From Escherichia phage vB_EcoP_EcoN5: 64,000 bases of DNA. The notes beneath the pieces are model-generated. The model made no database searches and was not told the DNA's origin. It saw only the letters and a program-made list of their open reading frames with translations. A program made the position numbers and the translations under genes. The DNA lies in the sequence record MN715356, one strand, 5' to 3'. Below are positions 1,872 through 48,233 of the stretch, piece after piece (within the stretch, counting starts at the first letter, position 1; every line of letters begins with the position of its first letter).

Positions 1872-3421
1872 TGCCACAAGATAATTATATTGACCCGAAC
1901 GATTTTAAATCTTTCCTCCAACTGGATGACCTGAAAGGTTCTTTTAAAGAAGAGCTTGGTCGATTAGAATCTGAACAAGAACCAGAAGTGGACATTGACG
2001 ATGAGTTTCCGGAACAAACCGGTGACGAATTCGACTTTGATACCGACCTTCTCGGTGAAAGCGATGAGCTTAAGTTCGAAGATGAAGATGGTTGGGAAGA
2101 TCGTGATGAGGAAGGCGAAGTCGAAGAAGATGGGGATGACTCTGATGAAGGTGATGAAAACACTGAAGTAGAAGAGGAAGACTCAAGCGATGCAGGATAT
2201 GAAGATGATTCTGCTGACGGTGATGGTGAAGTCTTTGATGTAGACTACGAAACCGTTATCACCCTTCCTGATGGACGTGAGATGACTATTGAAGAACTCT
2301 CCAATGGCTATCTCACTGGCGCTGATATGACAGAACGAGAATCAACTCTTCAGCGTCATATGGAAGCATTTGAGGAACGTGTAGTAGGTTTGAAGGATGT
2401 ATTAGAATTAGCGTCTTTAGAAGCAGACCGAGTAATTGAAGATTACAACGGATTTGATTGGGACAAGCTTGCAGTAGAAGATCCTCAAGCATATGTTGAA
2501 AACAAACGTTTCCTAGAGAAGTACACAGCTCGTCGTAACCAGCTTGAACAGGCTCAGGCCCGTATTAAGCAGGAAGCAGCAGCTAAAGAGCAGGAAGCTT
2601 TCCAAGCCAAGAGCATTGAATGTGTTAATATTCTGAAACGTGAGATTCCAAATTGGGATGAAAACTTATATCAAAACTTAATGCAATACGCAATTGACTT
2701 AGGTGCTACTGAAGAAGAAGTATTGAAGGAAAACCGTCCGTCTATTTTCCTAGCTCTCCACAAAGCATACCAATTTGATAAAGGTAAGCAGCAGGTGATG
2801 GCTAAGATTAAACGTCCCGGTGCTCCACGCAAGGTTGTGAAGTCTGATGCTGCAAAGTCTCGCACTTCCAATAAGCCAGACAACGCTAAGGTTGCCAAGG
2901 CATTCGCAGAGGGTCGCGTTAGTCACGACAAGCTTGCAGTAGAAGATCCTCAAGCATATGTTGAAAACAAACGTTTCCTAGAGAAGTACACAGCTCGTCG
3001 TAACCAGCTTGAACAGGCTCAGGCCCGTATTAAGCAGGAAGCAGCAGCTAAAGAGCAGGAAGCTTTCCAAGCCAAGAGCATTGAATGTGTTAATATTCTG
3101 AAACGTGAGATTCCAAATTGGGATGAAAACTTATATCAAAACTTAATGCAATACGCAATTGACTTAGGTGCTACTGAAGAAGAAGTATTGAAGGAAAACC
3201 GTCCGTCTATTTTCCTAGCTCTCCACAAAGCATACCAATTTGATAAAGGTAAGCAGCAGGTGATGGCTAAGATTAAACGTCCCGGTGCTCCACGCAAGGT
3301 TGTGAAGTCTGATGCTGCAAAGTCTCGCACTTCCAATAAGCCAGACAACGCTAAGGTTGCCAAGGCATTCGCAGAGGGTCGCGTTAGTCACGAAGACGCA
3401 TTCAAATTCCTCGTAGATTAA
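1871..3421 (+). CDS. scaffolding protein (poly-acidic N-terminal tract; carries in-frame 155-aa tandem duplication)
   Basis: Position between portal and major capsid; acidic D/E-rich region; helical charged C-terminal part repeated twice. Confidence 0.5.
   Translation: MPQDNYIDPNDFKSFLQLDDLKGSFKEELGRLESEQEPEVDIDDEFPEQTGDEFDFDTDLLGESDELKFEDEDGWEDRDEEGEVEEDGDDSDEGDENTEVEEEDSSDAGYEDDSADGDGEVFDVDYETVITLPDGREMTIEELSNGYLTGADMTERESTLQRHMEAFEERVVGLKDVLELASLEADRVIEDYNGFDWDKLAVEDPQAYVENKRFLEKYTARRNQLEQAQARIKQEAAAKEQEAFQAKSIECVNILKREIPNWDENLYQNLMQYAIDLGATEEEVLKENRPSIFLALHKAYQFDKGKQQVMAKIKRPGAPRKVVKSDAAKSRTSNKPDNAKVAKAFAEGRVSHDKLAVEDPQAYVENKRFLEKYTARRNQLEQAQARIKQEAAAKEQEAFQAKSIECVNILKREIPNWDENLYQNLMQYAIDLGATEEEVLKENRPSIFLALHKAYQFDKGKQQVMAKIKRPGAPRKVVKSDAAKSRTSNKPDNAKVAKAFAEGRVSHEDAFKFLVD
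2462..3393. repeat. perfect tandem duplication, 2 x 465 bp (copy 1 about 2462..2926, copy 2 about 2927..3391), in frame within scaffold gene
   Basis: Identical antisense ORFs 2671..2898 and 3136..3363 (offset 465); protein segment DKLAVEDPQ...AFAEGRVSH occurs twice; boundaries checked base by base. Confidence 0.9.
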
Positions 3422-3462
3422 TCGACAAATTAATTATTTAATAGTATAGGAGCTAACATAAC

Positions 3463-4521
3463 ATGGCTAATCCAACTTTATTTGTATCGTATGACCAGAA
3501 TGGTAAAAAACTTTCTTTTGCTAACTGGATTTCTGTTCTGTCCCCTCAGGATACCCCGTTCGTATCCATGACCGGTAAAGAGTCTATCAACCAGACTATC
3601 TTTAGCTGGCAGACCGATGCACTGGCAAGCGTTGATGGTAATAACGCACACGTCGAAGGCTCTCGTGCTGAAGACGGCGAAATGAAACCGACTGTTATCA
3701 AGTCTAACGTTACTCAGATTCTGCGTAAGGTTGTTCGTGTTTCTGATACTGCTAACACCACCGCTAACTATGGTCGTGGTCGTGAACTGATGTATCAGCT
3801 GGAGAAGAAAGGTAAAGAGATCAAGCGTGACCTCGAGAAAATCCTTCTATCCGGTCAGGCTCGTACCGACGTTCTGGCTGACCAGTACCTGACTAACTCT
3901 GCAACTGATCCTGCTGTTGTTGGTTTGAATGACACCCATGCAGCTCGTAAGACTGGTGCATTCCAGTTCCTGTGTGCTCACGGTGGTCTGGCTGGTGGTG
4001 TTGTTGACAAAACCAAGAACGGTCCTGCTGACCCGGATACTGGTGCAGTAACTGTTAAAGTTGCACAGAATGCTTCTAACCCGACTACTAACATCGGCTT
4101 TGATGAAGCAGATATCTTTGACATGACTCTGCAACTGTACACCGCTGGTTCTGAAGCAGATATCATCATGATTAACCCGGCTCATGCTAAGATCTTCGCT
4201 GGCCTGCAAGAAAATACTCAGGGTTCACGTAAGCGTATCTTTGAGAACACCAAGCAGTTCATCTATGAAGTTAACAGCATCACTGACCCGCTGGGCCAGA
4301 GCTACAAAATCATCGTTAACCGTTGGATGCCTACCGATGCAGTTTACTTCTTCCGTAGCGCTGACTGGACCCAGATGGTTCTGCGTGCTCCGAAACGTAC
4401 TGAACTGGCGAAAGATGGTTCTTACGAGAAGTGGATGATTGAAATGGAAGTTGGTCTGCGTCACCGCAACCCGTATGCTTCCGGCGTTCTGTTCACTGCT
4501 GCGGGAAAGGTGGCGGCGTAA
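3463..4521 (+). CDS. major capsid protein
   Basis: 352-aa ORF after scaffold gene, strong RBS (AGGAG), followed by hairpin terminator as usual for highly expressed capsid genes. Confidence 0.6.
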   Translation: MANPTLFVSYDQNGKKLSFANWISVLSPQDTPFVSMTGKESINQTIFSWQTDALASVDGNNAHVEGSRAEDGEMKPTVIKSNVTQILRKVVRVSDTANTTANYGRGRELMYQLEKKGKEIKRDLEKILLSGQARTDVLADQYLTNSATDPAVVGLNDTHAARKTGAFQFLCAHGGLAGGVVDKTKNGPADPDTGAVTVKVAQNASNPTTNIGFDEADIFDMTLQLYTAGSEADIIMINPAHAKIFAGLQENTQGSRKRIFENTKQFIYEVNSITDPLGQSYKIIVNRWMPTDAVYFFRSADWTQMVLRAPKRTELAKDGSYEKWMIEMEVGLRHRNPYASGVLFTAAGKVAA

Positions 4522-4532
4522 CAGTAGACAGT

Positions 4533-5045
4533 GTGACTGTTAGCCCTGCGTCTTTAGCAAGCCTAGAGACAGGGGCTACTCGGCAGTTCACTGCAAGCGC
4601 GGAGAAAAGTGATGGTTCTACCGAAACAACTGGCTTTACTTGGTCAGTGACAGGAGGTGGTTCTATCACTCAGTCGGGTTTGTATACTGCTCCGAGTGCG
4701 TCTCAATCCACTGATGTATCCATTACTGCAACTTTAGAGGGTGTTTCTGGTACAGCAACCATTTCTGAAATTGTTGCTCCTGCTCCTACTATTGTAGCTA
4801 AGGGTCCAATTACGGGTAAAACTGGTGGTTCTTCCACTAACTTCACTACCATGTTTACTGTAACTAATTCTGCTGCTGCGGATTACACATTTGTTGTAAC
4901 CCCTACAGAAGCTGGTACAGTAAGCGCCGCTGGTGCGTTAACCTTAGATGCTGCTGCAAGTGGCGAAGTTACTGTTCAAGCAAGTTTGACAGCTGACCCT
5001 TCCATCAATGCAACATGCACTTTTACTGGTGTAACACCTGCTTAA
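4533..5045 (+). CDS. Ig-like (Big_2-type) domain protein, possible capsid decoration or fibre protein; GTG start
   Basis: T/S/G/A-rich beta-strand pattern typical of bacterial Ig-like domains; start codon is GTG; directly downstream of capsid gene. Confidence 0.45.
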   Translation: MTVSPASLASLETGATRQFTASAEKSDGSTETTGFTWSVTGGGSITQSGLYTAPSASQSTDVSITATLEGVSGTATISEIVAPAPTIVAKGPITGKTGGSSTNFTTMFTVTNSAAADYTFVVTPTEAGTVSAAGALTLDAAASGEVTVQASLTADPSINATCTFTGVTPA

Positions 5046-5146: not shown

Positions 5147-5899
5147 ATGGCAATGCCAGATGTTCAATACCCCATCAATACCTATGGGTGGCTAAAGAAG
5201 GCCGTGGCCCTCTGGGCAGATAGGGACGATGACGAATTTGTTAATCAAATTCCAAACTTTATTAACTTTGCAGAGAAAGAGATTTATCGTAACTTACGTA
5301 TTCCTCCTCTGGAAAAAGAAGTGTACTTAGATATTAAAGATGGAGTAGCTTACATTCCTCCTGATTACTTAGAAGCTCAATGGATGATGAGAGCCAAAGA
5401 TGGTACAATCTTCCAAGTAACATCTCCTGAAGAGATTAGCTATCGTAGACAGCATGGAACAATTAACCCATCTCATTGGAATAACCAACCTGTTAACTTT
5501 GCTCGTTTCGGTAGTCGTTTCATTTTCTACCCTAGCATCGAAGCAGATACTCCGTACTATCCTGACGACGGAAGTCCTTTGATTCCAGCAGAAAACTCAG
5601 TAATTCTTAGCTATTATGCAGACCCACCGGAATTCCACGAAGATACAGACACTAGTGCTATTCTTACTATCGCACCAGAACTTCTTCTGTACTTCACACT
5701 ACGTCATGCTTGCTTGTTTGTTCAAGATGACAACGGTGTTCAGAAATGGTCAGCATTAGGAAAAGCTATCCTTGATGAAATGGTAGAACAGAATAAGAAA
5801 CAAGAGTACTCAGGTTCACCTATCGCAATTCCGAATAACATGACTCGACTTCAGAGCAGCTTGCCTGATATTTATGGTATTCGTACCTCTCGTGTATAA
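5147..5899 (+). CDS. hypothetical virion protein (possible head-tail adaptor or tail tubular protein)
   Basis: 250-aa ORF with strong RBS (AAGGAGGA) between capsid and fibre genes; no recognisable motif. Confidence 0.4.
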   Translation: MAMPDVQYPINTYGWLKKAVALWADRDDDEFVNQIPNFINFAEKEIYRNLRIPPLEKEVYLDIKDGVAYIPPDYLEAQWMMRAKDGTIFQVTSPEEISYRRQHGTINPSHWNNQPVNFARFGSRFIFYPSIEADTPYYPDDGSPLIPAENSVILSYYADPPEFHEDTDTSAILTIAPELLLYFTLRHACLFVQDDNGVQKWSALGKAILDEMVEQNKKQEYSGSPIAIPNNMTRLQSSLPDIYGIRTSRV

Positions 5900-41707: not shown

Positions 41708-41878
41708 CTAATCCTCTGAGTTGTGGGAACAGCAATATTCACATACTCCACAACAAGGGCAAATTTCTACACTTGGGTCGTATGCATCATCAACTGTCAT
41801 CCCACACTTAGTGCAGAACACATCATCATCATCTTCTTCCAATATTAACTCTCCAAAGTTTTCTTCAGGGCTGCCCAT
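41708..41878 (-). CDS. small Cys-rich protein (56 aa)
   Basis: Unlisted ORF with CTKCG...CPCCGVCEYCC; overlaps 3' end of ThyX-like gene; no strong RBS. Confidence 0.2.
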   Translation of the reverse strand: MGSPEENFGELILEEDDDDVFCTKCGMTVDDAYDPSVEICPCCGVCEYCCSHNSED

Positions 41879-42501
41879 GAGATTGGGTAGATCTTAGCCA
41901 TCTCTTCATCCAGAGATTGGGCAAATACTCGAACTTCATATTGAGCATGAGAGGAGAGTCGCTGACGACACAACTCAAACCAGCCATATAAAGAACCAGT
42001 CCACACCCACTCAGTGATCATTCCCTGAGGAAGAACAAATCGGGCTTGCTCTGGTGCAACGAATTCGATCAACTTGTCATATGCTGCTAGAGAAGCTTCA
42101 TATGCATCATTAATCAACATTAATGCTTCAGCTCGCTCTCCATCGATGAGTTGAACCCCTGAACCTGCATGGAGGTCCGAAGGTCTCGCAAAAATCTCTT
42201 TAGGGATGAAGACTTCAACTGCTCCATCTTTATACCGCCGGGACATTTCGTTCCACGAGAATCCAACCTGATGCTTGCCCAACTGTCTCGCAATTGCGAT
42301 AGGTGCTTTGCATCGGAAACTGACTTGCGGGTGTCGGAATGGGGTAACATGCTTCTCTCTTGCGAGGAAGTTGATGAGACGTTCATCACGTTCATTTAAA
42401 TCACCTTCACGGGTTACGCCAAAGGAAACTCGAGCTGCGTTTACTACGCTACGATCACTTCCCATAGCTTCGATTAATGTTGCTTGTAATTGTTCATTCA
42501 T
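41845..42501 (-). CDS. thyX: flavin-dependent thymidylate synthase-like protein (ThyX family, divergent signature)
   Basis: AARVSF, TPFRHP, KAPIAIARQ, NEMSRRY resemble ThyX blocks, but the expected RHR-x7-S motif reads KHQ-x8-S. Confidence 0.5.
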   Translation of the reverse strand: MNEQLQATLIEAMGSDRSVVNAARVSFGVTREGDLNERDERLINFLAREKHVTPFRHPQVSFRCKAPIAIARQLGKHQVGFSWNEMSRRYKDGAVEVFIPKEIFARPSDLHAGSGVQLIDGERAEALMLINDAYEASLAAYDKLIEFVAPEQARFVLPQGMITEWVWTGSLYGWFELCRQRLSSHAQYEVRVFAQSLDEEMAKIYPISWAALKKTLES

Positions 42502-42516
42502 CCGTGAATTTCCTTA

Positions 42517-42726
42517 TTAATATTCTTTTACATAATAAACCACTAAGGTTCCCTTCTCTGACAATGTTGATTTATGTAAGCTTACTTTACTATAAATCTT
42601 TGGAGCCATCTTAAGAGCCTTCTTAAAACGGCGAGCATCTTTACGAGTAGCAAAGTGCTCTGTAACAGGTATAGCCGGGTCTTGGTAGAGGTAATATACC
42701 ACCGTCCAATATTTTTTCATAATCAA
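42517..42726 (-). CDS. hypothetical small protein (member of 3-copy family)
   Basis: 69 aa; shares W...TRK(D/E)AR.(F/A)KK...(V/I)S(L/I)H...G..Y pattern with 44373..44582 and 44582..44791. Confidence 0.4.
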   Translation of the reverse strand: MIMKKYWTVVYYLYQDPAIPVTEHFATRKDARRFKKALKMAPKIYSKVSLHKSTLSEKGTLVVYYVKEY

Positions 42727-42995
42727 ACACCTAGGGCAGTAGTTAAGAATGCTTTCAGGTTTGCTTCAGTCTGCATACCAGAGAGGCTATAGTGTGCACC
42801 ACTATTACGGTCAGGTACAACGAAAGCAGGAATGCTTCGTACACCATACTTAATAGCTTGCTCACGACCATCGCCTTCAAGAATATTGATCTCTTCCACT
42901 TCTACATCAAACTCCTTAACAACCTTCTCAAAGGTAGGAGCCATTGCTTTACATGGAGCACACTGATTACTATAAAACTTAATTACTTTAGACAT
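42723..42995 (-). CDS. thioredoxin/glutaredoxin-like protein
   Basis: Active-site CAPC in N-terminal beta-alpha unit (KFYSNQCAPCK). Confidence 0.55.
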   Translation of the reverse strand: MSKVIKFYSNQCAPCKAMAPTFEKVVKEFDVEVEEINILEGDGREQAIKYGVRSIPAFVVPDRNSGAHYSLSGMQTEANLKAFLTTALGV

Positions 42996-43354: not shown

Positions 43355-43414
43355 ATATCTATATCCTTATAAACAAGTTCGCCCCACCTCGGGTTAGGAG
43401 ACAGGGCGTAGGTT

Positions 43415-44026
43415 TTAGTAAGACACATCACCACTTGAGTGGGACATGTTGCTCTTGACAAAGTAGCAATACTTACCAAGGCCTTCATTAATTTCTTGAA
43501 GCATACTCTGATCAACTGGATAAGTGGCTAAATCACCATCAAACTCATCCATCTTCTCAATAATACACATCAAGGTCATGCACATATCAGAGAGCATACC
43601 GTCCATGTCTAGGTCAGCATTACCCTCTGAGAACCAAGCATGGGAGAGATAGTTGGCTGCTGTAGCATCAACTTTAACACAGTGGTATCGCATACGTTCA
43701 GCAATACGATCTCCTACTTGTCGTGCGTAATCTTCCAGCTCGTCAAACATACCATGAACACCCTGGAATCCTGCACCAGAGACGTTCCAGTGGTAGTTTT
43801 TAGCTTTGATGTGCAAGAGTTCCATGTTAGCTTGTAAGCAGCTCAGGATGTGTTCTAGGCTGTTTCCACTAATCATGCCTTGCATTGTTTCAAGGCGAGA
43901 GATTGAAAGCTCAGACCGGTCTAACATATTATAGTCGGAACGACCAATCTCAGGTAAATCAAAGACATTCTTATGCATTTGGGTTTTCTCCATCAAGTTC
44001 AACTGAGTTAGCAACGTTACGTGCAA
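43415..44026 (-). CDS. Dps/ferritin-like protein
   Basis: Motif HWNVSGAGFQGVHGMFDELEDYARQVGDRIAERM resembles the Dps ferroxidase-centre helix pair. Confidence 0.5.
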   Translation of the reverse strand: MHVTLLTQLNLMEKTQMHKNVFDLPEIGRSDYNMLDRSELSISRLETMQGMISGNSLEHILSCLQANMELLHIKAKNYHWNVSGAGFQGVHGMFDELEDYARQVGDRIAERMRYHCVKVDATAANYLSHAWFSEGNADLDMDGMLSDMCMTLMCIIEKMDEFDGDLATYPVDQSMLQEINEGLGKYCYFVKSNMSHSSGDVSY

Positions 44027-44300
44027 TATTATCCATTACCTGCTGGGTAATTACGATGCAGTTCTGTGGGTCTACTGACTTAGAACGCCCCATTTCAGGG
44101 TCATACACCTTAACTCGCTTAGCAGTTGAACCTGTAACCTGAAGAACCTTCAACAGATATCCCTGATTACCAATAGACCAAGCAACAACATCACGATTCT
44201 TGATAAAGCGACCAAGCATATCACGATGATAAAACTGTTGCATCACCTTGGATTTTGTAATCTCTTCAGTGGGCGGGGCCACTTTACTCAAATCTAACAT
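43971..44300 (-). CDS. hypothetical protein
   Basis: 109-aa co-oriented ORF. Confidence 0.35.
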   Translation of the reverse strand: MLDLSKVAPPTEEITKSKVMQQFYHRDMLGRFIKNRDVVAWSIGNQGYLLKVLQVTGSTAKRVKVYDPEMGRSKSVDPQNCIVITQQVMDNIARNVANSVELDGENPNA

Positions 44301-44372
44301 AACTCTCTCCTGTAAAATACAAATTCTTATTGTACTCTATATACATTTGAGAGTTACCATATCTACTACCAA

Positions 44373-44582
44373 TCAGTAGTAAACATTCCGAGATAGCATA
44401 CAAGTACCTTCTGAGAATTCAACCCAACGATGTATGCTAACATGTTCAACTATACCGACCAGAGCTTTCATATTCTTTTTAGCAATACGAGCCTCTTTGC
44501 GAGTATTAAACAGTTTGATATTATCTTTACCTATGTGTTGTTCATGATTCCAGACAACACGAATAGCCCACATCTTTTTCAT
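44373..44582 (-). CDS. hypothetical small protein (member of 3-copy family)
   Basis: 69 aa, paralog of 42517..42726 and 44582..44791. Confidence 0.4.
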   Translation of the reverse strand: MKKMWAIRVVWNHEQHIGKDNIKLFNTRKEARIAKKNMKALVGIVEHVSIHRWVEFSEGTCMLSRNVYY

Positions 44583-44791
44583 TAGTAGTGTACCTTTCCA
44601 CCGATATAAACACGACCAGAGGAATACTCTCTGGCCTTATGAATGCTGATGTTCTTGATCATGTCCATGTTAAACATAGACTTTTTAAAATCTCGAGCTT
44701 GTTGGCGAGTAGGCAGTGCAGTCATAGTCATACCACCTGATGCCCACTTAATCTTTGCTAACCAAAACTGTCTCATAGTGATTGGTCTCAT
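44582..44791 (-). CDS. hypothetical small protein (member of 3-copy family)
   Basis: 69 aa, tandem paralog of 44373..44582. Confidence 0.4.
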   Translation of the reverse strand: MRPITMRQFWLAKIKWASGGMTMTALPTRQQARDFKKSMFNMDMIKNISIHKAREYSSGRVYIGGKVHY

Positions 44792-45258: not shown

Positions 45259-45783
45259 CTATCTTTCATCCACATTAAAGGAGAGATGAAGTCTACTCCT
45301 CATAGACTTAGCCAAAAGCTTTGCCTCTTCAAGAGTTTTCACTCCATATACAGACTCACGTTTACCATCTTTTTGGACAGATACACAGAACGTTCCACCT
45401 TTCTCTTGGTAGACATTCTTGATTCCTAGTTTGTTATCAACCCTTGTCTTAGCATTCTGACTGTTCTCAGAGTGAGAGCACTTTCTCAGGTTAGTTTCTT
45501 CTAGATTTTCTCTATTACCGTCAGCATGATCTATTTGATATTCATCCGATAAATCCTCACCAGTATAAAGAACAAAAAGAATCCTATGATTATGGACATG
45601 AACTCCTCCTAATGGAATTTGATAATATCCATCTTTTGTGAGCTTACCAGCAGGTTTACCTACTATATCATTAGCAAACTTACTAGGCTTCCTTTTCCAA
45701 GAAAGCCCTGAAGGTGATGACATGTCTATATTAAAGAGATCAACTACCTCATCATAGCATATCAGCATGGTTTGTTCCACCAA
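45259..45783 (-). CDS. HNH homing endonuclease with AP2-like DNA-binding domain
   Basis: Motif YQIDHADGNRENLEETNLRKCSHSEN plus C-terminal YGVKTLEEAKLLAKSMR. Confidence 0.55.
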   Translation of the reverse strand: MVEQTMLICYDEVVDLFNIDMSSPSGLSWKRKPSKFANDIVGKPAGKLTKDGYYQIPLGGVHVHNHRILFVLYTGEDLSDEYQIDHADGNRENLEETNLRKCSHSENSQNAKTRVDNKLGIKNVYQEKGGTFCVSVQKDGKRESVYGVKTLEEAKLLAKSMRSRLHLSFNVDER

Positions 45784-46306
45784 AAGCTTTTGTTGGCCCT
45801 TGTTGGTTATTATATGAACCTTTCGTTGCGTAGCTGTCCTCTTCAGATGAGGAATGCTTAAAGAACTCCATTTGACCTATACGCATCCCCGGTTTAATTA
45901 GCAGAGAGTGATGTTGTAGGACATTCTTGAATTCCATAGTTAACTGACTGCCATGCCAACCGCCATCAGCATGACCAGCGTGCATGTGCTCTAAGAAGCA
46001 ACGACCGACAGTAGATCGTAGCATGAAGTCACAGCTAATGTTATCTGGAAGATTGAATGTCTCCACTGTATGAGCTAAGAAGCATTCACCCGGTTTGATC
46101 ACCAACCCTTCCTCTGGAATCATAACCTCATTGAAGTTAGGGGATTCTTTAGCAGAGATATCAACAACCCCATTAGCTGCACCTTCCATCAGAACACGAT
46201 CTCCAATACGAACGTCAATGCTGGAGGAATTAACAGCTGAGTGTGGTGCATCAATAACACCATCATCAATTAATTTATGTAACTCTGGGCTTCCTAGTAA
46301 ACTCAT
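45752..46306 (-). CDS. dcd: dCTP deaminase (Dcd/dUTPase-fold)
   Basis: Motif HAGHADGGWHGSQLTMEFKN resembles the Dcd active-site block. Confidence 0.55.
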   Translation of the reverse strand: MSLLGSPELHKLIDDGVIDAPHSAVNSSSIDVRIGDRVLMEGAANGVVDISAKESPNFNEVMIPEEGLVIKPGECFLAHTVETFNLPDNISCDFMLRSTVGRCFLEHMHAGHADGGWHGSQLTMEFKNVLQHHSLLIKPGMRIGQMEFFKHSSSEEDSYATKGSYNNQQGPTKAFGGTNHADML

Positions 46307-46315
46307 TCTTATTCC

Positions 46316-47677
46316 TTAGTTATTTGTTTCCATGTCAAAAGAGATTCCACGACCCGCTTCATCGGCAAACCGAACTGTACGGGTTTGAGGTTCTAATACT
46401 TCAGGGTTGTTAGCAACAAAGCGATCAGCGAGACTGCGACTGACGGTCTCAGCAAGTTCCTCATGAGAAGGAATATCAAGACTGCCTACCACATCTTGGG
46501 TCACGCCTTCATCAGTCCACACAGCTCTAACAGGTGCGTTGATATCACCAGCAGCAAAACCCTGACCAGAGAACTGGTGACGGCTAACAGTCAAACCATT
46601 TGGTCGACCATTAGAACGTCTAGACAACCACTGCTCAAACGAATCGCTTGTGATACCAAGGGCTTCTTCAAAAGATGTTCTACGAGTAGGGCTTACTCTT
46701 CGTAACTCTTGTGCTCGACGCATTGCAGGGGCTACAAACACCCCTTCAATTGCATTGTGCCGATTAGGTTCATCTTCTCGACCAAGCAGATCACCGCCTG
46801 TGTTAGTCGTTAAATTTGTTAACCCTTCAGACCAATACGCATAAATTTGACCAGACCCGTGAACGCTTGACATTAACAGAATCTCTTCATAAGGGATTCC
46901 AAAGAATAGACTCATGTCTCGGTTAACACAATATTGAGCACTTGTCGTATCCTCAATAAGAGCAACCTGACCTCGTTCGTTGACCAGTTGGCTAACTGGT
47001 TGAGGTGTGGGAAGATATCGAGTTTGGGCCATGTATTGATGTGCAGCTGCTGGAGAGGAAAATCTCAACACTTGCGAGTTAGGCCACTTCTTGTGAACAT
47101 ATCTGATTTCACGACTAGAAACAACCACTGGACAAGGGGCGGTCATAGCCAAGTATCCGTGAGAAGTCATGAATAAGTTGTCAAGAGTCATCGCACCACG
47201 GCACATCATAGGAAAATTATCCAATACCTCTTCAATAGAAGTAGGATAATTAAACATGAATTGGATACGAACCCCATTCCACTGAAACTCAATAATATCA
47301 GTGAACGTTAATTGAGAACTCCCAGCATAGGATTCGTTTGTAGCTTCAGCAAGAAGGGATGCATATTCAATATCTTGTGACTCTAGCCATTCCTTCACAT
47401 TACTTTCAATCTCTCTTCCAAGAGCTTGCCAACGATCAGTTGGGACGAAAGTATTTTGAGTTCTTGGTGTTTGTCCTCTGACAATAAAGATATCAATGTC
47501 ATGTGGAGCCATGTTATTAAGTACAGCATCTCGAACAGCCCCACCAGTAATGATGGGACAGATACCGTCTGGAACCAAGTTGTTATTAATCAACTGTTCA
47601 ATGAAGTTACGACCAACAGTGATATCAGGTTGTTGAGCAACCTTATCTTCAATTTGGTTAATCGGGATAACAATCAT
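46316..47677 (-). CDS. nucleotidyltransferase, tRNA CCA-adding/poly(A) polymerase head-domain family
   Basis: Motif ITGGAVRDAVL...HDIDIFIV equals the GGxVRD...DxD signature; start set to second ATG to avoid overlap (longer form to 47734 possible). Confidence 0.5.
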   Translation of the reverse strand: MIVIPINQIEDKVAQQPDITVGRNFIEQLINNNLVPDGICPIITGGAVRDAVLNNMAPHDIDIFIVRGQTPRTQNTFVPTDRWQALGREIESNVKEWLESQDIEYASLLAEATNESYAGSSQLTFTDIIEFQWNGVRIQFMFNYPTSIEEVLDNFPMMCRGAMTLDNLFMTSHGYLAMTAPCPVVVSSREIRYVHKKWPNSQVLRFSSPAAAHQYMAQTRYLPTPQPVSQLVNERGQVALIEDTTSAQYCVNRDMSLFFGIPYEEILLMSSVHGSGQIYAYWSEGLTNLTTNTGGDLLGREDEPNRHNAIEGVFVAPAMRRAQELRRVSPTRRTSFEEALGITSDSFEQWLSRRSNGRPNGLTVSRHQFSGQGFAAGDINAPVRAVWTDEGVTQDVVGSLDIPSHEELAETVSRSLADRFVANNPEVLEPQTRTVRFADEAGRGISFDMETNN

Positions 47678-47678
47678 T

Positions 47679-48233
47679 TTACATTTTCCAATATAATGAA
47701 GGTGGGTCGTAAGGGTCGAATCCTGTGAGTTCACACAAGAAAAGATAAACCTTAACGGTTAAGTTAACGTCCTGTTCACAATAAGTAAACATATCTTCAG
47801 TGAAAGCATCCCATGCTTCCTCTTGCTCACCGTAATCTCCTTTAAGTTCCTCTAAGAACTCACCCCATTGCTTCAAACCATGACCTCTTGGGCCATGTCT
47901 AGGGTCGCCTTTCGGATACTCAGGACTGTCACCAATACGGTCAGGTTTAAGATATCGACTAAGACATAAAGTGTCAAAGACATTAAAATGATATTTAATC
48001 AAAGAAGGATACATCTTCTTCAGAGCAGGCAAGTCGAAGTCAATAATATTATGACCCACTAGTACATCTGCTTCTGTAAGTTTACGAATCCCGTCTTCAA
48101 TTTGGTGAGGCCGATAGCCCCACCTTTCACCAGTTTCAACATCGAAGATGTAAATACACCACACTTTAGTTATGTCATCGTACAGTGCATTACTTTCGAT
48201 ATCAAATGCAAACACTTTCTTTTTCTTTACCAC
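47679..48233 (-). CDS. 3'-5' proofreading exonuclease (DnaQ-like, T7 DNA polymerase N-terminal-domain-like), separate gene
   Basis: Exo [10 protein letters not shown], Exo [14 protein letters not shown], Exo III YCEQDV; 184-aa stand-alone ORF. Confidence 0.6.

Follow-up and report, generated by a model that had tools for sequence, protein, structure and literature searches.

Does the open reading frame (ORF) at 43415-44026 of Escherichia phage vB_EcoP_EcoN5 (MN715356) encode a Dps-like mini-ferritin and, if so, what would such a protein do in the replication module of a lytic phage? An earlier note, made from the sequence alone, had recognized in this ORF a resemblance to the ferroxidase helices of Dps proteins and proposed iron sequestration, oxidative protection of replicating DNA or DNA compaction as possible functions. 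Hereafter, the window refers to the whole stretch of DNA that was analysed (64,000 nt). The ORF is real: it lies on the minus strand and amounts to 203 aa when counted from a TTG codon, and the block that had drawn attention to it, HWNVSGAGFQGVHGMFDELEDYARQVGDRIAERM, corresponds to residues 79-112 of this maximal translation. Its start coordinate, initially placed at 44026, needs correction, the ATG at 43978, which opens a 187-aa product (MHKNV...), being better supported and the most likely start codon. This ATG is favoured because of a Shine-Dalgarno-like GGAG, read off the sequence 9 nt upstream; because of the overlap ATGCATAA, which it shares with the stop codon of the upstream gene (gp68); because Dps homologues from related phages share the N-terminus MH(K/N)N, with one exception carrying a 5-residue extension; and because the reference annotation of phiEco32 gp67 has the equivalent start. 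Longer versions of the ORF, beginning at TTG 44026 or ATG 43993, were dropped in favour of ATG 43978, and the segment upstream of it is probably not translated as a part of Dps. The mass reported for CDS67 of phage SU10, 21.2 kDa, is the same as that of the 187-aa product (PMC4281155).

43415..43978, minus strand: coding sequence of the Dps-family mini-ferritin (187 aa, 21.2 kDa, pI 4.7), orthologue of phiEco32 gp67 and SU10 CDS67
43979..44026, minus strand: 5' extension of the maximal ORF (TTG 44026, alternative ATG 43993), within the 3' end of the gp68 gene
43988..43991, minus strand: Shine-Dalgarno-like GGAG, 9 nt 5' of ATG 43978

The window represents the genome of a Kuravirus (Gordonclarkvirinae, phiEco32-like), because the 8 kb around the Dps gene display 92-94% DNA identity to Escherichia phages ES17, SR02, 172-1 and NJ01, and the Dps protein is 97-99.5% identical in phiEco32, SU10, SGF2 and some 65 more records. 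The assignment to Dps is correct but already known, the gene belonging to the usual core gene set of these phages. The phiEco32 gp67, annotated since 2008, is described in its GenBank entry as "DNA-binding protein; member of the Dps family", and Dps is discussed as a core gene of podophages with the C3 (prolate) morphotype in the papers on SU10 (2014; PMC4281155) and, likewise, Privateer (2021; PMC7881722). The initial impression that Dps is uncommon in phage replication modules holds for phages at large, with a Dps match in 166 of 50,697 phage records (0.33%), but not for the lineage to which this phage belongs, where the gene is near-universal: Kuravirus-like genomes contain 96 full-length copies, compared to 97 records matching the surrounding 8 kb. 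Other prolate podophages carrying Dps include members of the Grimontviridae (Privateer and SE131), Cronobacter phage A24 and the Aeromonas Lahexavirus LAh_9, and Dps genes are also found in unrelated Streptomyces, Lactobacillus and gut phages (gut 'Gratiaviridae').

The gene encodes a genuine Dps-family mini-ferritin, as is evident from the family matches, the fold and the set of metal ligands. The protein matches the Pfam Ferritin family (PF00210) with 30.9 bits, compared to a gathering cut-off of 24.5, and is matched end to end by PHROG 3636 (E = 3e-55), the description of which reads 'DNA binding protein'. A phmmer search against the PDB yields about 45 Dps chains at E<=0.1, with M. smegmatis Dps2 (MsDps2) being the best match (E = 2.9e-9) and Bacillus Dps-like proteins also among the leaders; nearly all matches in this search are Dps chains. 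A chain deposited as a 'putative bacterioferritin' (3kwo) appears among the same matches at E = 9e-4. With a profile constructed from 15 phage-clade homologues, 6,131 PF00210 proteins are recovered at E<=1e-5, many of which are named Dps in their source. Judged by Pfam, PHROG, phmmer and the profile, the resemblance to Dps pointed out in the earlier note is well above chance.

The AlphaFold2 (AF2) model, built on an alignment of phage homologues, has a mean pLDDT of 80, with values of 85-97 in the core, and consists of helices A (residues 41-65), B (71-98), C (125-150) and D (154-176) and a short BC helix (107-112), whereas a fifth, C-terminal E helix is absent from the model. Foldseek ranks only Dps proteins among its 50 best PDB matches, the target TM-scores reaching 0.92 and the rmsd being 1.1-1.6 A across ~140 residues. 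Structure prediction, the check suggested at the outset, thus yields the ferritin-like four-helix bundle. A classical 24-meric ferritin or bacterioferritin was considered and rejected, given that none is present among the top 50 fold matches, that the model has no fifth helix and that the ligands are of the Dps intersubunit type.

The ligands of the ferroxidase centre reside in the following block.

43691..43792, minus strand: ferroxidase-centre block HWNVSGAGFQGVHGMFDELEDYARQVGDRIAERM, residues 63-96 of 187 aa, containing H63, W64, H75, D79, D90 and E94

These six residues align with H51, W52, H63, D67, D78 and E82 of E. coli Dps, in which the spacing (0/+1/+12/+16/+27/+31) is the same, and with H31, W32, H43, D47, D58 and E62 of L. 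innocua Dps. The residue numbers of the E. coli and L. innocua sequences match those published for the ligands. The alignment with MsDps2 produced by phmmer independently gives the same ligand correspondence. The five ligands and W64 are all present in the phage protein and invariant throughout the phage clade (49 of 49 sequences), so that the second check suggested at the outset, alignment of the ferroxidase-site residues, also leaves the Dps assignment standing. In 71 cellular Dps, the columns of the two His, the Trp, D90 and E94 are likewise invariant (71/71), and the column of D79 is occupied by Glu in 58 sequences, Asp in 8, Gly in 3 and Gln in 2. With both halves of the intersubunit site being kept, conservation of the two-fold dimer is implied.

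Within the Dps family, the sequence places the protein in a divergent phage subclade. The score against the NCBIfam equivalog for Dps (NF006975) is 34 bits, far under the cut-off of 114, and in an exhaustive search of representatives of 50%-identity clusters, only 13 reach E<=1e-10. The profile of the phage clade separates phage relatives, which score at least 125 bits, from cellular Dps, which score at most 82. Recent capture of the host dps gene was also considered and rejected, because E. coli Dps is a marginal match (phmmer E about 0.1-0.2) and the nearest relatives of the protein are other phage proteins. Divergence extends to the three-fold pore. Acidic residues at this pore, which are typical of the Dps family but not strictly defining, are missing from the canonical positions: the places of D121, D126 and D130 of L. 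innocua Dps are taken by A151, P154 and S158, although the alignment of the C-D loop is uncertain and several acidic residues (D144, E145, D147, D149, D156 and E162) cluster nearby. The column occupied by Asp in 70 of the 71 cellular Dps corresponds to Y153 in the phage protein and varies between Tyr, Cys, Asp and Asn across the phage clade. These substitutions suggest that the route of iron entry may be altered or remodelled.

The termini of the protein bear on its possible interaction with DNA.

43841..43978, minus strand: N-terminal extension of ~46 residues, found in Kuravirus-like phages only (K+R 4, D+E 7)

The extension is modelled with low confidence by AF2, with one predicted helix (residues 22-37), and is lacking in the relatives from Salmonella, Proteus and Cronobacter phages (144-156 aa). 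The DNA-binding activity of E. coli Dps is mediated by a flexible Lys-rich tail at the N-terminus, and that of M. smegmatis Dps1 by such a tail at the C-terminus; Dps without such tails, for instance that of L. innocua, generally do not bind DNA. Binding of phage or host DNA, whether for compaction or shielding, for example, by blocking restriction nucleases or condensing the host nucleoid, would fit the label 'DNA-binding protein', which the gene carries in phiEco32, SU10, SGF2 and many other phages, as does PHROG 3636, and also the short, mildly basic N-terminus of the short relatives from Salmonella, Proteus and Cronobacter phages (e.g. MLTARPKRNV). However, the label has been transferred from the name of the family, and no tail of the E. 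coli type, rich in Lys and Arg, is found in the phage protein. With a pI of 4.72, the protein is acidic as a whole; its first 46 residues are net acidic, and its last 10 include no Lys or Arg at all. Given this acidity and the lack of a Lys/Arg-rich terminus, the name 'DNA-binding protein' appears poorly supported. DNA binding is probably not the main activity of the phage Dps, and we regard a role in binding, compacting or shielding DNA as quite unlikely. In many deposited genomes, the gene is called either "integrase" or just "DNA-binding protein", and the sequence supports neither name.

The gene is expressed and is under strong constraint. The dN/dS ratio is 0.055 in the comparison with phiEco32 (dS 0.25) and ~0.05 in that with the orthologue from the Suseptimavirus SU7, where dS is saturated; in the same saturated comparison, the ratio is 0.025 for the four-helix core and 0.135 for the N-terminal 45 codons. 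The possibility that the gene is a degenerate, non-functional ferritin relic was rejected, all ligands being kept and dN/dS being ~0.05. As for expression, peptides covering 35.8% of SU10 CDS67 were detected by mass spectrometry in a phage preparation (PMC4281155), and the Dps homologue of Privateer was among ten proteins detected by mass spectrometry in virions that had been purified through a CsCl step and equilibrium gradients (PMC7881722). Such detection could signify that Dps is a virion-associated component, located inside the head and packaged or ejected alongside the genome, and the presence in the BFVD database of large viral fusions with the Dps fold that are named 'Prohead protease' (names only) might be read in the same way. 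Yet, the same SU10 preparation also yielded peptides of DNA polymerase and thioredoxin, showing carry-over of non-structural proteins (PMC4281155), and a dodecamer of ~250 kDa, possibly iron-loaded and dense, could conceivably co-purify with virions through PEG and CsCl. In the cryo-EM study of SU10, which tabulates late gene products and major gel bands only, the head-internal ejection proteins are gp20-24 and Dps is unmentioned (PMC9509320). Furthermore, Dps is a middle gene of the replication module rather than a late gene. The putative fusions with prohead protease were dropped as support for packaging, given that the five long Dps-containing proteins recovered in the search of representatives (276-777 aa) contain PF00210 only and no protease domain. 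Overall, we consider a virion-associated role highly unlikely.

Dps is located between the gene for dCTP deaminase and those for thioredoxin and ThyX, in the part of the middle region devoted to nucleotide metabolism.

45752-46306: dCTP deaminase
45259-45783: HNH endonuclease ORF, absent from phiEco32
43971..44300, minus strand: gp68 homologue (109 aa, phrog_10984), forming a conserved gene pair with Dps
42723-42995: thioredoxin
41845-42501: ThyX

Several small ORFs are found between the HNH endonuclease ORF and gp68, and the region between Dps and thioredoxin encodes a hydrophobic, probably membrane, protein of 59 aa and a 56-aa ORF. Translation of gp68 is probably coupled to that of Dps. The AF2 model of gp68 (pLDDT 75) shows a small SH3-like beta-barrel with flanking helices, but its neighbours in fold space are limited to non-significant SH3-, KOW- and Tudor-like matches (best E = 0.017), and no Pfam family and no recognizable metal or nucleotide motif was found in the protein. 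We therefore refrained from assigning a function to gp68 from its fold, the structural matches being non-significant. Involvement of this locus in defence or anti-defence was also considered and rejected, as Dps, gp68 and gp66 produced zero PADLOC matches.

The gp68-Dps unit is flanked by putative transcription signals.

44338..44383, minus strand: promoter region of the gp68-Dps unit, with a sigma70-like pair and a phage-sigma (gp36-type) motif
43380..43408, minus strand: candidate terminator or RNA-stabilizing hairpin (11 bp), beginning 7 nt past the Dps stop codon

Upstream of gp68, a sigma70-like pair, TTTACT (44383-44378) and TATGGT (44361-44356), is followed by the phage-sigma (gp36-type) motif AAATGTATATA at 44348-44338. 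phiEco32 and SU7 have an almost identical intergenic region 5' of gp68, with a promoter being annotated in SU7, and in SU10, a sigma70 promoter and the motif tAATGTATAtA precede CDS68, the first middle gene (PMC4281155). Promoter function of this region is predicted from these motifs. Downstream of Dps, the stem of the hairpin is identical in phiEco32 and SU7, with the loop being different in SU7; the calculated energy of -15 kcal/mol is unexceptional compared to shuffled sequence (z = -1.3), so that we only tentatively propose that the hairpin is a terminator. Taken together, gp68 and Dps look like the first two cistrons of the middle unit, perhaps delimited by an attenuating hairpin.

The association between the two genes extends beyond the Kuraviruses. 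Homologues of gp68 (phmmer E from 1e-15 to 4e-17) directly precede Dps in Privateer and LAh_9 and are found 1.3 kb ahead of it in SE131, and the pairing is kept although the identity between the Dps proteins drops to 31-45%. In all prolate podophages examined, Dps is housed in the dNTP-synthesis module, albeit in different contexts: the gene order in Privateer is dCTP deaminase, thioredoxin, the gp68 homologue and then Dps; in SE131, Dps directly follows ThyX; and in LAh_9, it comes after NrdD and NrdG, at a distance of 0.5 kb from nrdG. The next gene past Dps in each of these three phages encodes a small ATP-cone protein, the ATP-cone being an allosteric domain of ribonucleotide reductase (RNR). 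This recurrent neighbourhood, along with the persistence of the gp68-Dps pair, would be compatible with Dps acting as an iron buffer or donor for dNTP synthesis rather than as a protectant, by feeding RNR, namely, the host di-iron NrdB during Kuravirus infections or the [4Fe-4S] activase NrdG encoded by the relatives, and gp68 or the ATP-cone protein might then be its partners. However, gene neighbourhood is all that such a reading draws upon, and in compact phage replication modules, adjacency is weak evidence. Moreover, no RNR or ATP-cone gene is annotated in phiEco32 or other Kuraviruses, whose own enzymes include none that is obviously iron-dependent, and, as described above, gp68 offers neither a motif nor a significant fold match that would link it to metals or nucleotides. 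No Dps is known to supply iron to RNR. Accordingly, we find the donor role distinctly unlikely.

In our assessment, the phage Dps is, with a probability of about 0.62, a mini-ferritin produced together with gp68 from the first middle promoter and serving to detoxify Fe(II) and peroxide during replication. The analysis shows the family, the fold, the set of ligands, purifying selection and a conserved genomic context, and we infer the oligomeric state, enzymatic activity and role in vivo from the analogy with cellular Dps. By this analogy, the protein would assemble via two-fold dimers into a hollow dodecamer, with two ferroxidase centres at each dimer interface, to each of which one subunit would contribute H63, H75 and D79 and its partner D90 and E94, and with W64 standing beside each centre. 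Fe(II) bound at the centres would be oxidized, with H2O2 as the preferred oxidant, and the resulting Fe(III) would be stored within the shell. The resulting decrease in free Fe(II) and peroxide in the infected cell would suppress Fenton chemistry and thereby shield the replicating phage DNA, the dNTP pool and the neighbouring redox-sensitive enzymes of nucleotide metabolism, that is, ThyX, thioredoxin and dCTP deaminase in this phage and the anaerobic ribonucleotide reductase NrdD/NrdG in its relatives. Of the functions proposed in the earlier note, the sequence agrees with iron sequestration and oxidative protection, whereas compaction of DNA fits poorly with an acidic protein lacking a Lys-rich tail. 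The same role in oxidative stress has been hypothesized for the Dps of gut phages (PMC8008677), and no experimental study, biochemical or genetic, of any phage-encoded Dps was found in the searchable literature.

It is unlikely, in our view, that the protein instead performs a role partnered by gp68 and different from that of a simple protectant, be it as a particle attached to virions or packaged in them, as the mass spectrometry of CsCl-purified Privateer suggests, or as a module dedicated to handling iron for nucleotide synthesis. If this were the case, a changed function would be reflected in the acidic, lineage-specific N-terminal extension and in the remodelling of the three-fold pore. 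Under the preferred reading, that of a mini-ferritin detoxifying Fe(II) and peroxide, the conserved gp68-Dps pair and the repeated detection of Dps by mass spectrometry in purified phage preparations are loose ends. The question is relevant for understanding whether lytic phages manage the oxidative stress of the host while replicating, and also because Kuraviruses, which are in use as therapeutic phages, carry in this gene a conserved and strongly constrained putative detoxifier of iron and peroxide.

The closest known relatives of the protein are phiEco32 gp67 (ABY52868 / YP_001671812) and SU10 CDS67, which are 97.5-98% identical to the phage protein across the 203-aa ORF and 97.9-98.4% across 187 aa, are equal to it in length and occupy the same place in the middle-gene module, with gp68 on one side and gp66 on the other; the few substitutions are mostly confined to the N-terminal extension. 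The Dps of other phages (Grimontviridae, Lahexavirus, Streptomyces, Lactobacillus and gut 'Gratiaviridae') share the ferritin-like Dps domain and, as here, are encoded in lytic genomes, but display 27-45% identity, are mostly 140-160 aa long and lack the Kuravirus N-terminal extension; several of the corresponding genes adjoin genes for ATP-cone proteins or NrdD/NrdG, which the Kuraviruses do not carry. Among solved structures, the best matches in both sequence and fold are MsDps2 (2Z90, 4M35), Dlp-1 and Dlp-2 of B. anthracis (1JI5/1JIG) and MrgA of B. subtilis (2CHP), with E from 3e-9 to 1e-8, target TM-scores of 0.80-0.92 and rmsd down to 1.1 A. This group has the same set of ferroxidase ligands and the same BC helix as the phage protein, but is only 22-27% identical to it and has no counterpart of the ~46-residue N-terminal region; furthermore, unlike in this group, helix C of the phage protein is rich in Met and Cys (GMLSDMCMTLMC) and the canonical pore positions are non-acidic. 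Finally, E. coli Dps (1DPS) has the same fold and ligand positions as the phage protein, but the two differ in the N-terminus, the pI of which is ~10 in E. coli Dps, with its Lys-rich tail, compared to ~5 in the phage protein.

In many deposited Kuravirus genomes, GenBank matches show the gene for the Dps-family mini-ferritin labelled as ‘integrase’, for instance in ES17 (MN508615.2), IME267 (NC_070983.1), CHD5UKE1 (NC_070989.1) and YW01 (PV018828.1), and a few records name it ‘ferric iron binding protein’. Because the only domain in the sequence labelled ‘integrase’ is ferritin-like, this label is, judging from the sequence, a propagated misannotation.

The Dps start codon in the window is overlapped by the upstream gene, which encodes gp68 (phiEco32 nomenclature), a 109-aa protein that belongs to phrog_10984 and has no Pfam family. 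The gene and its homologues lie as follows (coordinates of the other phages are local to each Dps locus):

43971-44300, minus strand: gp68 in the window
4639-4923: homologue in Privateer
4609-4962: homologue in LAh_9
3385-3651: homologue in SE131

The homologue adjoins Dps in the distantly related prolate podophages Privateer and LAh_9, and lies 1.3 kb from Dps in SE131. The AlphaFold2 (AF2) model of gp68 is a predicted SH3-like β-barrel with flanking helices, and its structural matches are all non-significant. Upstream of gp68, a sigma70-like promoter is overlapped across its −35 element and spacer by an inverted repeat:

44363-44381, minus strand: TACTAC-TGATTGG-TAGTAG

The repeat is conserved in phiEco32, and two of its loop positions are changed in the Suseptimavirus SU7. 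It may act as an operator, or it may terminate the unit before it.

Directly 3′ of Dps, the three other phages encode mutually homologous proteins, 90-99 aa long, whose annotation reads ATP-cone or ‘ribonucleotide reductase’:

5398-5694: Privateer
5411-5710: SE131
5429-5701: LAh_9

LAh_9 also carries nrdD and nrdG, at most 4.5 kb upstream. By contrast, the window has a 59-aa hydrophobic protein in place of the ATP-cone-annotated gene.

The window also contains several other open reading frames (ORFs):

45259-45783, minus strand: HNH endonuclease, 174 aa (phrog_99, E 7e-41)
44373-44582, 44582-44791 and 42517-42726, all minus strand: three paralogous 69-aa ORFs
46316-47734, minus strand: 472-aa counterpart of phiEco32 gp73 ‘nucleotidyltransferase’

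The HNH endonuclease ORF directly follows the dCTP deaminase gene, overlapping its 3′ end, and is probably a mobile homing-endonuclease insertion, given that phiEco32 has no gene at this position. The three 69-aa paralogues are scattered around Dps. Two of them have matches to phrog_4939; the remaining one shares 36% identity with the first (blastp E 9e-8). The 472-aa ORF shows a weak, below-cut-off match to the poly(A) polymerase/CCA-adding head domain (PF01743, E 9e-4).

A Dps-like fold also occurs in some longer proteins (333-763 aa) of uncultured phages matched in BFVD (A0A6J7XDU5, A0A6J7WPK9 and A0A6J7WIS1), identified as ‘Prohead protease’ from their names alone. If these names hold, they would suggest that in other phages Dps domains are joined to capsid-maturation proteins; in a separate search, a protease domain was absent from all five long Dps-containing proteins (276-777 aa).

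The window Dps contains 15 Met and 5 Cys in total and carries a Met/Cys-rich motif in helix C:

43561-43603, minus strand: GMLSDMCMTLMC, residues 126-139 of 187

Within the phage clade, M128 and L136 of this helix are invariant and M132 nearly so. The Met/Cys richness may simply reflect core packing rather than a soft-metal site. Cys133, Met134 and Cys138 are typical of Kuravirus-like members, whereas cellular Dps proteins have Leu, Ala, Asn or Thr at these positions.
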